A stretch of DNA of 38,440 bases from Anaerolineae bacterium. Lineage in GTDB: Bacteria; Chloroflexota; Anaerolineae; JBHIEC01. Of the stretch, positions 1 to 38,200 are shown in pieces (within the stretch, counting starts at the first letter, position 1; every line of letters starts with the position of its first letter). A program made the translations under genes and the position numbers. Below the pieces are notes generated by a model. The model made no database searches. It was given only the letters and a program-made list of their open reading frames with translations, and was not told the DNA's origin. Where the stretch lies: contig JBHIEC010000003.1 of NCBI GenBank assembly GCA_046760425.1, positions 1 to 38,440 on the forward strand, read 5' to 3'.

Positions 1-1265
1 CCGACGAGATCATTGAGGGGACGGACCACGTGGCCGTGCCCGGCTTCTTCAACGCCCACACCCACGCCCCCATGACCCTGGTGCGGGGCTGGGCTGAGGA
101 CTTGCCCCTGGACCGCTGGTTCAACGAGCGCATCTGGGTGGCTGAATCAGCCCTGGAGGAGGATGACGTCTACTGGGGCGCAGCTCTGGCCGCCTGCGAG
201 ATGATCCGCTCCGGCACCGTGGCCTTCGCCGATCACTACTTCTGGATGGATCGCGTGGCCCAGGCGGTGGAAGAGTCCGGGCTCCGGGCCACCCTGGCCT
301 GGTGCATCTTCGGCCTGGGGGCGGAGCAGGAGATCGGTGGGGCGACCCTGGAGCGGACCGAGGAGTTCGTCCAGCGCTGGCAGGGCGCGGCGGGAGGCCG
401 CATCCGCACCGTGCTGGGCCCCCACGCCCCCTACACCTGCCCGCCGGAGTTCCTGGCCCGCGTGGCCGAGCGGGCCGCTGAGCTGGGCGTGGGCCTCCAC
501 ATCCACCTGGCCGAGTCCCAGGACCAGATGGAGGCCTCCCTGGCCAAACACGGCCTGACCCCCGTGGCTTTCCTCGATAGCCTGGGCCTCTTCGACCAGC
601 CGACCATCGCTGCCCACTGCATCGCCCTGGCCGAGGTCGCAAGCGCTCGCAGGACAACCGTTCGAGCGGTTGGGTCTCCCGAACCCCCTGCGAGCGCTTG
701 CGAGGAGGACATGGCCATCCTGGCGGAGAAGGGGGTGAACGTCGTGCAGTGTCCCAACTGCCACATGAAGCTGGCTATGGGGGTCACGCCGGTGCCGGAG
801 CTCCTGGCCCGGGGGGTCAACGTGGCCCTGGGCACCGACGGCCCGGCCAGCAACGACAACCTGGACATGCTGGAAGAGGCCCGACTGGCGGCCCTCATCC
901 AGAAGCACCGTACCGGCGACGCCACGGCCCTGCCCGGCGACCTCCCCCTGCGGCTGGCGACTCAGAACGGCGCGCAGGCCATGGGCTTCCCCGACAGCGG
1001 TGTCATCGCTCCGGGGAAGGCGGCCGACCTGGTCCTCTTCGACTTCCGCAGGCCGCACCTGCGGCCCCGCCACGACCTGGTGGCCAACCTGCTCCACGCC
1101 GCCAACAGCGCCGACATCAGCCACGTCATCGTGGACGGCCAGTTGCTCCTGCGGGAGGGGGAGCTGCTGACCCTGGACGAGGAGCGGATCCTGTACGAGG
1201 CGGAGCGGCGGGCCTACCGCATGGTGGGGCAGGAGCTGCGGGTGGTGCGGAGGTACAAAACATAA
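1..1265 (+). CDS. mtaD: Amidohydrolase, 5'-methylthioadenosine/SAH deaminase (MtaD/DadD-like); 5' end lies outside the window; carries a 23-aa in-frame insertion
   Basis: PGFFNAHTH (HxH), HIHLAES (HxxE), ALGTDGPASND and GKAADLV motifs. The frame is open from position 3 (DEIIEGTDHVAVPG). Confidence 0.8.
   Translation, partial: DEIIEGTDHVAVPGFFNAHTHAPMTLVRGWAEDLPLDRWFNERIWVAESALEEDDVYWGAALAACEMIRSGTVAFADHYFWMDRVAQAVEESGLRATLAWCIFGLGAEQEIGGATLERTEEFVQRWQGAAGGRIRTVLGPHAPYTCPPEFLARVAERAAELGVGLHIHLAESQDQMEASLAKHGLTPVAFLDSLGLFDQPTIAAHCIALAEVASARRTTVRAVGSPEPPASACEEDMAILAEKGVNVVQCPNCHMKLAMGVTPVPELLARGVNVALGTDGPASNDNLDMLEEARLAALIQKHRTGDATALPGDLPLRLATQNGAQAMGFPDSGVIAPGKAADLVLFDFRRPHLRPRHDLVANLLHAANSADISHVIVDGQLLLREGELLTLDEERILYEAERRAYRMVGQELRVVRRYKT
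637..703. mobile_element. 67-bp palindromic micro-element (MITE/RPE-like) inserted in-frame in the amidohydrolase
   Basis: Perfect 17-bp IR TCGCAAGCGCTCGCAGG (637-653) / CCTGCGAGCGCTTGCGA (687-703), flanked by GG...GG. Homologous copy at 34822-34957. Confidence 0.85.
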
Positions 1266-34624: not shown

Positions 34625-34657
34625 AGGGAAGGCTCCTAATCTTTCCGTCTACCCTCT

Positions 34658-34685
34658 ATGACGTGGAAGCCCAGCAAAAGATACG
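34658..34685 (-). promoter_or_regulatory. Putative autoregulatory ECF promoter CGTATC-N16-CGTCAT
   Basis: Plus-strand GATACG 34680-85 and ATGACG 34658-63; matches the general ECF pattern with a CGT -10. Confidence 0.55.
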
Positions 34686-34710
34686 GCCCTCAGTGAAACC
34701 CCCGGTGTGA

Positions 34711-34778
34711 TGACAAGCGTGCACCGGGCCTTTCTCCCCCAGCCTGCCATTCGCTCATACGCAGGTGCACGCTTGTCA
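34711..34778. mobile_element. 68-bp palindromic micro-element (same family as 637-703)
   Basis: 15-bp IR TGACAAGCGTGCACC/GGTGCACGCTTGTCA; GA...GA duplication; interrupts a CCCCCGG/CCGGGGG hairpin. Confidence 0.8.
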
Positions 34779-34821
34779 GAGCCGGGGGGAAAGGAGCGCG
34801 GGGCTGGAAGCCCCGCGCTGA

Positions 34822-34957
34822 TGACAAGCGCTCGCAGGACAACCTATCGAGCCTGCGGTGATCTTGAGCCCTGACAAGCGGTCACGCTCGCCTTAGCTCA
34901 TTTCAGCTCTTAGCTGTGAGCCGCGTGACCGCTTGTCACCCCTGCGAGCGCTTGTCA
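34822..34957. mobile_element. 67-bp palindromic micro-element carrying a nested second copy
   Basis: 17-bp IR TGACAAGCGCTCGCAGG/CCTGCGAGCGCTTGTCA; GA...GA duplication; 136 bp minus the 69-bp nested insert = 67 bp. Confidence 0.85.
34872..34938. mobile_element. 67-bp nested palindromic micro-element
   Basis: 16-bp IR TGACAAGCGGTCACGC/GCGTGACCGCTTGTCA; CC...CC duplication. Confidence 0.85.
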
Positions 34958-34971
34958 GAGAGAGCAAAGCC

Positions 34972-35020
34972 CCCTCCGACAATCCTTCGACAGAGCTCAG
35001 GACAAGGCTCAGGGCACCGC
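34972..35020. repeat. Nested CCTTCGACA..GCTCAGG-type REP-like repeats
   Basis: CCTCCGACAA-[TCCTTCGACAGAGCTCAGGACAA]-GGCTCAGGGC, with GACAA duplicated around the inner copy. Confidence 0.55.
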
Positions 35021-35058
35021 CTCGGGGGCTAATGATTGTAGCCCAGAGGGCTTCGCTC

Positions 35059-35150
35059 TTTCAGCCCGACGGCTTCAGCCTCGGGCCCTTTTTCTTACGC
35101 CTGTGTTGGTTTCAAGCCCGCTGCGAGCGCTTGCGAGGGGGAGCAGTCAC
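35059..35150 (+). mobile_element. Possible non-autonomous IS200/IS605 end remnant (PATE-like)
   Basis: Hairpin AGCCCGACGGCTTCAGCCTCGGGC, then AAGCCC...GGGGAGCAGTCAC, resembling IS605 subterminal hairpins and a TCAC right end. Confidence 0.35.
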
Positions 35151-35220
35151 AGCCTGCCTAGGTCAGCAGTGACACTCCCCCACCTGGCAGTGGGGGCTTC
35201 TACAGACTTCTGAGCCAAAG

Positions 35221-38200
35221 CTACGGAGCCTCCTGGGCCTCGGTTGTCGTTGGTGACGACGTGCCTGTCGGCGTGGCAATCTCCGTGGCCGTGGGTATGG
35301 CGGTGTTCGTGGGTGGTGGTGTGTGGGTTGGCGTGGGCGTCCCCGTGGGGATGCTGGTTGATGTGGCCGGGGCCGTGCCCTGCGGCGTGGGCGTGCACAG
35401 CTCGGGGTAGATGAGACAGAAGTCCTCGGGCGTGGGCGTGGTGGTTAGGGTTGGGGTGGCCGTCGGGGTGTGGGTCAGGGTCACCGTGGGAGTGGGCGTC
35501 ACGGCCTCGTTGAAGATGGCCTCCAGTTTATAGGGCTGGGTCTGGCTGAAAGTGTTCCTGAAGCTCTGCACCAGGATGTAGTAGGTGCCCGTCACCGTAG
35601 GCAGGTAGTTGATGTCCTCCCTGTCAGTGTTGCTCTCCGAGCGGGCCACTTCCTTCTGGTCGGGATCGTAGAGGAAGAGGTCGTAGTCGGCCCCGGCCGG
35701 GATCTGGGTCAGGTGGACGACGATGGGCTCCGAAATCATGGTGACGCTGATCTTGTAGTAGTCTTTATCCGTCGCCGACCAGATATAGGCTTCGTAGGTC
35801 GTTCCGGACCTGAGGGGCCCGTAGGCTTCGGTGAAGCTGTCGTTGGGCTCCAGGAGGTCCTTCCCCGGCGTTGGTGTGGGGGTGATGGTGGGCGTGCTGG
35901 TGGGCGTGGGCGTATCCGTGGCCGTGGGCGTGGGGGTCGCCGTAGCCTCGATCACCCCGAAGGTGACCTTCAGCTTGTAGGCCGCGGCTCGGCTGTAGGT
36001 GCGGTTCTGGCTCTGCACCAGGACGTAGTACTTCCCGAGCACTGTGGGCTGGTAGGTGATTTTCTCGCTGCTGCCAGTGCCCTCCGATCGGGCCAGCTCC
36101 GTCTGGTTCGCGTCGTAGAAGAAGAGGTCGTAGTCGGTCCCGGAGGGGATATTGCTCAGCTTGATGGTGATCTCCTCCAGGGTGCTGATCTCGAACCAGT
36201 AGTAGTCCTTGTCCGTGGTGGCCCAGATGTAGGACCTGTAACTCTCCCCGGACTCTAGCGGCCCGTAGGCGGTGGAGAAGGTGTTGTTGGACTCATAAGT
36301 GTCCTTGCCCGGGGTGGGTGTCGGGGTGCGGGTGGGCGTCGTGGTGCGCGTCGGTGTGGTGGTGGGCGTGGTGGAGGGCGTAGGTGTGTTACTGGGGGTG
36401 GGGGTCGGCTCGACCTCCTCCAGGCTGAGGGTGTAGGTGTTGCCGGGAGGGGCAAACCCGAACTCGTTGACGTTGGTGATCTTGGCTATGGCTACGCCGT
36501 CCACGGGGGCGCGGAAGAGGATCTCCGACGGGTCGCGGGCCGTGGGATCGTCTTCGAAGACCTGATCACCCACCTCCACCTGGATACGGGTGTCCACCCG
36601 GGAGCCCAGGTCGTAGGTCTTGATGCGGTAGAGACGCCCCTTGATCACTGAGAAGGCTACCCAATCCACGTCGCCCGCGGGGTAGAAGGTACGCGCCTGG
36701 ACCTCCCCCAGGCCTATGGAAGCGGGACTGACGTCGTCAGGCTCGTAGGCATCCAGAAGGGTGGGGGTGGGGGTCGCCGTGGTTGTGGCTGTCACCACGC
36801 CCGTGGGGGTCAGCACCGCCGTGGGGGTGAACTCGACCGTGGCCGTCACCGTACCTGTGGGCAAGGGCTTGACGTAGGGCGTCGCGGTGGGCGACACAGG
36901 GGGGGTCGAGATGGGCGGAGGGGTGGGGGTGGGCGACGGCGCAGTCACATCGGTGCAGCTCAGACAGATCTGATCCTCGCGATGGGTGGCCTGCAGGACG
37001 TCGCTCACCGAGATTTCATAGATCACGGGCCGCATCCGGCCCTCGATCTCCTGCGTCTGGTGGGGGTAGAAGACATAATACTTATCGTCACGGAAGGCCA
37101 GGAGGCGCAGGCAGTCGTAGCGCCAGGTCCCGGAGGCGGCGGCCACAGGAGCCGGCGAATCCCCCAGATCCAGCTCCTTGTTGGCGTAGAGGCTGATCTG
37201 GGGGAAGGACTCCCCATAGCACATATCCCCCTGGGCCTGCAGTCTCCCCGCTTGGGTGAGGAAGGTAGGGATGAGCAGGAGCAGGGCGATGGCCACCCCG
37301 CGCGCCAGGTTCCGCTCCCAGCGGGTCAGGGGACGCTCTGTGCCGAAGAGTTTGGAATGGCGCAGGATGGTGACGATCTGGCTGAGCTGCGGATAGCGGG
37401 AGACGTCAACGCGATGCAGGGCCTGGCAGAAGAGCTTGTAGCTGATCCACAGCGCCCCTAGGGCAAAGGCGAAGAAGATCAGGAGCAGGGCTCGTCCCAG
37501 AAGGGGAGAGGAACCCAGGGTCTCCTGAATGACCCTGAGCCCTCCCTTGGCCGGTATGCCTTTGGTCACCAGCCAGCTCCAGAGGGGGCTCAGGCGGGGG
37601 AAGAGCAACTGAAAGCTGAACAGGTAGGCCAGGAACAGGGTCAGGATCACGGCCCAGCGGGCCCGCGCATCCTCCACCAGGGCCAGGATGCGGTCACCCA
37701 GGTAGATGAAGCCGAAGGGTATGATGAGCAGGATGGCCAGCATCAGGGCGGCGTAAAGGAGGAGCAGGGGCAGCATCAGCAGGAAGCCCAGGCTGAGGGT
37801 GATGACCTGCCAGCCGCGGGCGAAGTACTCGGCCGACAGAAAGCCGGGGGCGGAGAGGACGGACCACCCGAACTCGTTCAGGTAGCTGATCTTGTACAGC
37901 CAGCCCCAGAAGTAGACCAGGGCGGCCAGGCCGCCACAGATGGCCAGGATGGCCTGGTTGGTGCGCAGGTCCTGCAACCCGATCCGCAGGAGGGGAGCGG
38001 CCAGGGGTGCCTTGGGGGTGACCTCCTCTTCCACGCCCAGGAGGCCTTCCTCGGCCATGTCCGCCCCCGTGAGGTCAGCTTCGGCCAGGTCGGCCCCGCT
38101 GAAGTCGGCCCACCACAGGTTGGCGCGGCGCAAGTCGGCCTTCTGGAGGTTGGCATGGTGCAGGTCGGCCCAGCGCAGGTCCGCCTTCTGCAGGACGGCC

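Follow-up and report, generated by a model that had tools for sequence, protein, structure and literature searches.

A family of 67-bp hairpin-forming elements flanked by two-base duplications, probably a trans-mobilized MITE-like transposon, in an Anaerolineae genome

Four short self-complementary elements in a 38,440-nucleotide stretch of an Anaerolineae genome (hereafter the window) belong to an abundant and recently active family, whose copies are probably non-autonomous, hairpin-shaped, MITE-like transposons that are moved in trans and duplicate 2 bp of their target. Each element is built from perfect terminal inverted repeats of 15–17 bp, beginning with 5'-TGAC or 5'-TCGC, around an asymmetric interior of ~35 bp. 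Recent activity is indicated by identical copies that occupy unrelated sites. The window is contig C3 of the host assembly (G000; other contigs are cited below in the same form), which comprises 2,545,115 bp in 350 contigs with 63.6% G+C and is 75% complete. The locus is present in four DNA sequencing runs from one hydrothermal-vent metagenome study, with no RNA run among those listed, and the 40 genomes compared as relatives are all related to the host only at class level.

All four copies reported in the initial annotation were recovered at their positions, one of them 68 bp long and the other units 67 bp; none of the repeat features described here has an assigned strand. The first element (637..703), 67 bp long and of the TCG/CGA type, belongs to the interior group of cluster 4, lies in frame within an mtaD-like amidohydrolase ORF and is flanked by GG at 635-636 and 704-705. 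The remaining copies lie close together in intergenic DNA. A 68-bp element of the TGA/TCA type with the arm TGACAAGCGTGCACC (34711..34778) stands between GA at 34709-34710 and 34779-34780, and is followed by a 136-bp host element (34822..34957), also TGA/TCA in type and with the same interior group as the 637-703 copy, which is bounded by GA at 34820-34821 and 34958-34959. At offset 50 of this host, the inner end of its right arm, a further 67-bp element (34872..34938) is nested between CC at 34870-34871 and 34939-34940. As had been claimed, the host measures 67 bp once the nested copy is removed, provided that one CC is taken out with it, and the assignment of a separate 2-bp duplication to each window copy (GG, GA, GA and CC) is borne out.

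A GC-rich hairpin, AGCGCGGGGC-TGGAA-GCCCCGCGCT (34795..34819), stands directly 5' of the target GA of the 34822 element and exemplifies a hairpin-adjacent target, of which the flank type CCGCGCT-GA-GAGAGC recurs among the unique sites of the genome. Downstream, at 35094..35136, lies a truncated copy consisting of the 3' 43 nt of a TCGCAAGCGCTCGCAGC-type (TCG-type) element, with a different repeat in place of its other end. The window contains three matches to the core pattern CAAGCG-N35-60-CGCTTG, whereas 100 shuffles gave an expectation of 0.07. Folded as single-stranded DNA, the window copies reach −20 to −30.5 kcal/mol, with z from −5.2 to −8.7 against shuffles; the values are −20 kcal/mol (z −5.2) for the 34711..34778 copy, −25.6 kcal/mol (z −8.1) for the nested copy and −46 kcal/mol for the host and nested pair together. 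Several repeat families are piled up in this intergenic region (34640-35220), and contigs of the four sequencing runs cover 34713-35246 at a depth 10–20-fold that of the flanks.

The genome-wide inverted-repeat search suggested by the initial annotation, with its tally of lengths and target duplications, confirmed both a 67-bp peak and the 2-bp duplications. The host genome contains 118 arm-matched paired elements and 102 unpaired termini. Exactly 67 bp is the length of 75 of the 118 pairs, 92 fall at 64–69 bp, and 14 measure exactly 136 bp, which corresponds to 67+67+2, one copy nested inside another. CAAGCG..CGCTTG pairs span exactly 61 in 79 of 140 cases genome-wide, and a sequence-blind scan for perfect 12-bp terminal inverted repeats returned 77 matches at span 67 and 17 at span 136, compared with ~1–10 matches at each span neighbouring 67. 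When hairpins are defined by T...A tips and by 15-nt arms that may differ at one position, 93 of 152 have a span of 67; of these 93, 62 start with TGAC and 29 with TCGC, and the set comprises 32 arm haplotypes, with perfect 15-bp arms in 68 cases. With both strands counted, TGACAAGCG occurs 213 times and TCGCAAGCG 125 times. Many of the unpaired termini lie at contig ends or in decayed copies, and the 102 have no longer interior in common. The repeats explain the fragmentation of this metagenome-assembled genome, since many of its 350 contigs terminate within an arm.

The family extends beyond its commonest sequence and length. Thirteen members do not carry CAAGCG (TCGCGAACGCTCGCA, TGACGCGCC.., TGACGAGCG..), and matching GG, CC or TC flanks occur in 11 of them. 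A related TTGAAAGCGCTCACCCGTC family measures 70–71 bp, and four longer relatives of 104–106 bp (C95:56-159, C140:3649-3752, C11:1197-1302 and C49:9504-9609) bear TGACAAGC tips, as in the 67-bp family, together with CC duplications. The proposal that the mobiliser recognises size was overstated: the length peak at 67 bp is real, but the tips and duplications of the four longer relatives make a strict size rule doubtful. Mini-palindromes of 22–31 bp (C30:2798-2824, C40 near 498 and C7 near 3267), in which the two arms persist and the interior is gone, still sit in a GA-duplicated target hairpin and represent internal-deletion derivatives. As short (<500 bp), non-coding, dispersed multicopy elements (118 pairs) with terminal inverted repeats and a target-site duplication, the family is MITE-like and belongs to a known kind of element, although its features are unusually combined and its parent is not known.

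Identical dinucleotides flank 88 of the 108 copies with enough flanking sequence, compared with a background of 9.5% when positions 67 bp apart are drawn at random. By sequence, these 88 duplications divide into GG (38), CC (22), GA (13), TC (11), CT (2), AG (1) and CA (1), or, pooled by strand, GG/CC 60, GA/TC 24, AG/CT 3 and CA 1. Where a single inner copy is recognised in a nested case, its flanks are identical in 16 of 16 instances (CC 10, GG 5, CT 1), and in all 16 the host regains a length of 67 bp only when 2 bp leave with the insert. Several target repeats occur both empty and filled: GGGGCGAGGACGCCCC has 38 empty and five filled instances, the duplicated GA of every filled one enclosing exactly 67 bp; for GGGGCGGGGACGCCCC the counts are 17 empty and two filled, and for GAGTGCGGACGCAAG 20 empty and four filled, with two further nested cases. 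The 75 empty target repeats checked yielded no footprint, either as a residual duplication or as a stub, and therefore give no sign of cut-and-paste excision. At the window locus, contigs of the four runs bridged the first copy and the host/nested junction, and none among those listed contained a clean joint skipping 69 bp, a comparison in which contigs cannot reveal rare variants.

Pairs of near-identical copies separate what belongs to the element from what belongs to the site. Among 23 such pairs (0–3 differences over 67 positions), polarity is shared in 30% and the class of target duplication in 78%, compared with 51% and 59% expected under independence. Identical copies are flanked by GG in one place and CC in another, copies one base apart by GG and TC, and both orientations occur in every large cluster. 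Because the dinucleotide varies among near-identical copies and both polarities are found, the flanks represent a true target duplication and not a carried crossover core; the flanking 2 bp derive from the target, as would result if its strands were attacked with a 2-bp stagger and the gaps then repaired.

This variation bears directly on a very unlikely alternative, in which a recombinase exchanging strands at a 2-bp overlap that the element carries, either an IS607-type serine enzyme with a GG overlap or an IS110-type enzyme, would move the element and the excised arms would join into a palindromic crossover site. GG is indeed the commonest flank, arms brought together would create a site of perfect inverted repeats with 2 bp at its centre, the assembly contains one IS110-type gene, and IS607-family elements resemble the family in having GG either side of the insert and little other target specificity, GG being the IS607 overlap (as set out in the accessible part of PMC4058570). 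Such enzymes, however, need a matching overlap and a fixed polarity, whereas near-identical copies here carry GG, CC, GA or TC in both polarities. IS607 carries its overlap with it, and the portion of PMC6188088 that describes its family presents the elements as having no terminal inverted repeats. A serine-recombinase element of the IS607 kind was rejected on the variation of dinucleotide and polarity between identical copies and on the 75%-complete assembly of the host, in which Resolvase gave zero matches and no serine recombinase gene was found. For an IS110-type enzyme, the target flanks are too varied for one site specified by a bridge RNA, and the gene in the assembly is not near any copy.

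Matching flanks are missing in 20 of the 108 copies, several of which look like recombinants between copies, clearly so on C174, for example. There, a 1.5-kb segment with an acyltransferase-like ORF (C174:57-1743) lies between two identical copies in inverted orientation. A third copy is split in two, one half forming the outer flank of each of them, so that the flanks have been exchanged. The arrangement is an inversion produced by recombination between elements.

A 12+2+12-bp context that occurs only once surrounds 81 of the 88 matching duplications. On the purine strand, these 81 sites yield the consensus G(-2) Y(-1) [G R] R(+1) G(+2), a motif that is not palindromic. The initial annotation had described the target as not being a fixed TA; no TA occurs among the 88 duplications, but the choice is far from free, being restricted to G-R within G-Y-[G-R]-R-G. 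Derivation from an IS630/Tc1-mariner element was rejected on the same count (TA in 0 of 88) and on the absence of DDE_3 matches from the assembly. The 2-bp G-R target is unlike that of every described IS family that could be checked.

Target sites are also enriched near hairpins. For 41% of the 69 unique non-nested sites, a perfect stem of at least 6 bp is found no more than 8 nt away; the corresponding proportions are 7.2% for the full set of control Y-G-R-R sites and 6.7% for those in intergenic-like, ORF-poor DNA. The suspected preference for hairpin DNA as target therefore holds statistically (41% versus ~7%), and could partly mirror where the G-rich motif happens to lie. Fifteen further unique sites are inside family members, at offsets 15, 19, 50, 51, 54 or 55, which correspond to the inner end of a terminal stem; nesting thus arises because the stem tops of other family members serve as targets. 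Positions 18/50 and 19/49 of the elements are nearly always C:C or G:G. Small GC-rich hairpin repeats, in the host genome at large and at 34959-35090 of the window, are recurrent targets: GGGGCG-AGGA-CGCCCC (38 copies) and ..GAGTGCGGACGCAAGTCCGC.. (20 copies).

The arms were analysed in 79 distinct 67-mers. Positions 1-15 and 67-53 form Watson-Crick pairs in 94–100% of copies and G:T pairs in 0–3%, and pairs 2, 3, 10, 13, 15 and 16 co-vary, each occurring in two or three Watson-Crick types, in agreement with the co-varying and perfectly matched arms noticed in the window. The near-absence of G:T wobble argues against an RNA stem and for a constraint at the DNA level, imposed by a need for identical ends or for a hairpin formed in DNA. 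Within interior groups, TGA/TCA and TCG/CGA tips change together at both ends: cluster 1 comprises 19 TCG-type and 4 TGA-type copies, and the copy inside the gene at 637 has TCG-type tips, in contrast to the TGA-type tips of its nearest relatives, among them 34822-34957. Arms that co-vary yet stay complementary raise the question of how two ends evolve in concert.

The consensuses of the clusters fall into at least three ungapped homology groups over 33 interior positions, with 18–21 of 33 positions in common among clusters 1, 4 and 8 and 12–20 of 33 among clusters 2, 3, 5 and 7, compared with a shuffled mean of 8.5 (sd 2.5); cluster 0 stands apart from the other groups. The earlier description of the middles as largely unrelated was overstated with respect to this homology inside groups, but it is accurate between groups, where no similarity was found. 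Constant length inside an interior group is accounted for by common descent without indels; since the groups are dissimilar yet equally long, some length constraint remains.

Copies inside genes provide a further view of insertion. The element at 637..703 lies in a gene on the forward strand (3..1265, 5' end cut by the window) for a 5-methylthioadenosine/S-adenosylhomocysteine deaminase-like (MtaD-like) amidohydrolase, which remains open through the element. Pfam Amidohydro_1 covers residues 11-381 of the protein, across the insert, and the seven closest aligned homologs (74–93% identity) are without exactly those 23 residues; close homologs are source-named Anaerolineae or Chloroflexota. One insertion adds 67 + 2 = 69 bp, or 23 codons, and keeps the frame because 69 is a multiple of three. 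At least seven Pfam-confirmed genes carry in-frame, stop-free copies, encoding the MtaD-like amidohydrolase, an FAD/4Fe-4S oxidoreductase, a PUA-SAM methyltransferase, a SpoIID/amidase wall protein, a family-9 glycosyltransferase, a YfhO-like membrane protein and an InhA-like protease. In the glycosyltransferase gene (C54), a tandem GG-67-GG-67-GG contributes 46 residues. When 100 or more open codons were required to either side of the element, 13 candidates remained, of which eight have a stop-free insert and five have one to four stops in it. Elements are rarer in long ORFs than chance would place them, with 25% of them, versus 75% of random positions, having at least 60 open codons on both sides. 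The copy on C215 has one in-frame stop within the element, and that on C169 has no duplication and shifts the frame; their host ORFs may be disrupted genes. An AlphaFold model of the MtaD fragment, built from an eight-row alignment, was poor (mean pLDDT 47.8), and the insert could not be placed in the fold. By adding exactly 23 codons, the element would be a mutagen that inserts peptides into proteins, here into at least seven enzymes. Rickettsia RPEs are similar in this respect, being palindromic repeats that occur in frame in functional-looking genes and add a peptide (as outlined in the relevant sections of PMC10969869 and PMC3733652), but they are ~100–150 bp long and belong to other sequence families, and the host here is a free-living Chloroflexi lineage. 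The 23-codon inserts thus parallel the Rickettsia RPEs, but in a free-living vent bacterium.

It is highly improbable that the copies are host-beneficial structural repeats, such as terminators, mRNA-stabilising or nucleoid hairpins, which were spread by duplication or recombination and are now immobile. The mostly intergenic location, the strong hairpins, the existence of some copies as segmental duplicates with long flanks in common and a mobiliser not found in the assembly would all suit such repeats. They would not explain why 81 of 88 matching-flank sites are unique and each has a precise 2-bp duplication, nor the clean nesting, the in-gene insertions missing from homologs and the identical copies at unrelated sites, and the arms are without the G:T wobble expected of a selected RNA stem.

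A non-autonomous element moved in trans remains our preferred reading. Beyond staggered 2-bp insertion in either orientation, probably replicative, its mechanism is one that we infer. A transposase supplied in trans would bind the two identical ends and join them to target phosphates 2 bp apart, with gap repair making the duplication; the donors would not be excised, hence the copy number would rise. Identity of the arms would be maintained by the need of both to fit a single enzyme, or by template switching that corrects the palindrome, and the mobiliser would lie outside the assembled 75% of the genome. To our knowledge, the only described IS families that make 2-bp duplications are IS30, IS630 and some IS5 sub-groups.

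By analogy with IS30, we tentatively suggest, as the likeliest single option, that the enzyme may be of the DDE type and act by a copy-out-paste-in route. IS30 attacks the target strands 2 bp apart, producing 2-bp direct repeats, inserts preferentially at hot spots that are nearly palindromic, also targets the inverted repeats of IS30 itself, and moves by copy-out-paste-in (according to the part of PMC9333248 that concerns these steps). It is the closest analogue in behaviour: the 2-bp duplication falls within the 2–3 bp characteristic of IS30, the 67-bp family also targets hairpins and its own copies, and tandem copies exactly 2 bp apart occur on C54 and C24. In contrast to IS30, nesting here takes place at the inner end of an arm and not abutting a tip, the target motif differs, and a gene with the rve domain, which is catalytic in IS30 and IS3, is absent from the assembled genome (75% complete). 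Against the DDE proposal, a non-palindromic target motif is unusual for a symmetric DDE dimer. Simple co-evolution of transposase and ends, moreover, does not explain the concerted switching from TGA/TCA to TCG/CGA.

An alternative addresses this last point. A structure-guided mobiliser, unlike a classical transposase specific for end sequences, could read only the 4-nt tip (TGAC/TCGC) and a ~16-bp stem of any sequence in an extruded hairpin or cruciform, rebuild one arm from the other and use hairpin targets. Regeneration of arm from arm would account for the perfect arms in 32 haplotypes and for the concerted tip switches. We consider such a mobiliser unlikely; if it existed, it would constitute a new transposition chemistry or enzyme family.

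The search for a mobiliser agrees with the initial annotation in that no cognate transposase is visible in the window, and none was found in the assembled genome either. A long autonomous element with the same termini, which the initial annotation had recommended looking for, was likewise not found in the plasmid, phage and viral collections searched, nor in the assembly (75% complete, 350 contigs), in which the two long terminus pairs enclose housekeeping genes. Both pairs were rejected as autonomous copies: one of 1805 bp on C89, which encloses a heavy-metal ATPase-like ORF, and one of 1686 bp on C174, which encloses the acyltransferase-like ORF of the inversion between copies. Profile searches of the assembly returned no matches for rve, DDE_3 or Resolvase, and identified three Y1_Tnp genes, one IS110-type gene and three DDE_Tnp_1 genes. 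The three DDE_Tnp_1 genes were dismissed on inverted repeats unrelated to the family ends, and the Y1_Tnp and IS110-type genes on position, none of them being flanked by or near copies. In a 75%-complete, repeat-broken assembly, a missing enzyme is weak evidence of absence.

The Y1_Tnp genes invite comparison with REPINs, in which a RAYT or IS200-type Y1 (HUH) transposase, cutting beside fixed dinucleotides, would mobilise two inverted REP-type arms in the form of a hairpin of single-stranded DNA. The hairpin shape, the co-varying arms and the structure-like conservation fit this reading, as do the three Y1_Tnp genes themselves. REPINs and REP dimers with their RAYT also have two inverted arms that pair across a spacer into a single long hairpin; their arms show compensatory changes, and copies occasionally lie within genes; known REP dimers have conserved spacers of 20–100 bp, and intragenic ones encode 20–30 residues (features given in the sections of PMC3733652 on these repeats). 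The 67-bp family differs in having a true duplication, with 2 bp added to the target as seen in the nested hosts and in the empty and filled target repeats, and in a polarity relative to the purine strand that differs even between identical copies. Its termini are TGAC or TCGC, with no GTAG/CGTC tag, and no Y1 or RAYT gene is flanked by the family, the gene on C84 having a hairpin of its own. On the missing tag, the missing flanked RAYT gene and the duplication, a REP/REPIN system with RAYT was rejected, and movement as a REPIN-like hairpin appears quite improbable. The C84 gene (C84:2879-3406), a RAYT-like Y1_Tnp, has TACACCTT-tcc-AAGGTGTA hairpins on either side, at 2726, 2849, 3483, 3547 and 3608; gene and hairpins are probably a separate REP/RAYT system.

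As MITE-like elements, the family can be set beside other prokaryotic examples. Correia/NEMIS, RUP, ERIC, Nezha and Chunjie are likewise short, non-coding, dispersed and hairpin-forming, with terminal inverted repeats and target duplications, and are presumably mobilised in trans; MITEs are typically AT-rich and integrate in AT-rich intergenic DNA (as summarised in the MITE sections of PMC10969869). In contrast, the 67-bp family is much shorter and far more uniform in length, is GC-rich and enters GC-rich hairpins, and duplicates G-R rather than TA. It also differs in that its arms co-vary at six positions among sub-families of one genome and no parent IS is known. Few transposon-like elements that combine clean inverted repeats with a clean duplication are as small, and the copies form an unusually complete natural record of nesting, empty and filled repeats, in-frame insertions and recombinants, including the 1.5-kb inversion.

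Termini number 276 (136+140) in the host genome. In 400 further genomes of its class, all at least 90% complete, they never exceed 5 per genome and are at control level (0–3 per strand). True members occur at low copy number in G006 and G025, from two other families of the class, and further members in at least one Chloroflexi MAG (L140) and seven metagenome contigs. Members beyond the host are mostly 66–68 bp long with CC/GG flanks; exceptions are the L001/L162 copy, with unmatched flanks, and one G025 pair that spans ~61 bp. G025 has a sub-family with TGACAAACG in both arms.

In keeping with the initial impression of an undescribed family, no description was found in the databases and literature searched. 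Rfam gave no match to the window at the gathering score, chance hairpin-like matches reaching 16–24 bits against gathering scores of 40–100. No member was found among 72,556 plasmid and 50,697 phage records searched with window 34700-34960, nor in IMG/VR scanned with the two commonest arm types, and a literature search, which covered mostly sources other than subscription journals and supplements, did not find the family described.

Other short inverted-repeat families were encountered alongside. In G218, of the same class, ~35–50 TA-flanked copies of 66–70 bp (e.g. L009-L038) represent another very short MITE type; this family, (TA)-TR-CTGCAAGCGGG...CCCGCTTGCAG-YA-(TA), is unrelated and was rejected as a member, having been selected only by a CAAGCG-demanding pattern, as were the GGGTGG-GACAAGCG hairpins of Planctomycete and Lamprocystis sequences. 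The host genome itself contains a second hairpin family of 95–104 bp with arms AGAAACC(A/C/G)GGTTTTT...AAAAACC..GGTTTCT (for example C11:661-755, C37:6182-6280 and C206:1975-2073), of which more than 40 of the 68 matches listed have spans of 95–106, with no obvious 2-bp duplication. A third inverted-repeat family of ~97–98 bp, with arms ACCCTTGCGAAGGTT...AACCTTCGCAAGGGT, has about a dozen copies (for example C63:3165-3262, C68:3654-3751 and C194:22-119), and a smaller AGACCTCCGAGGTCT inverted-repeat family is also present.
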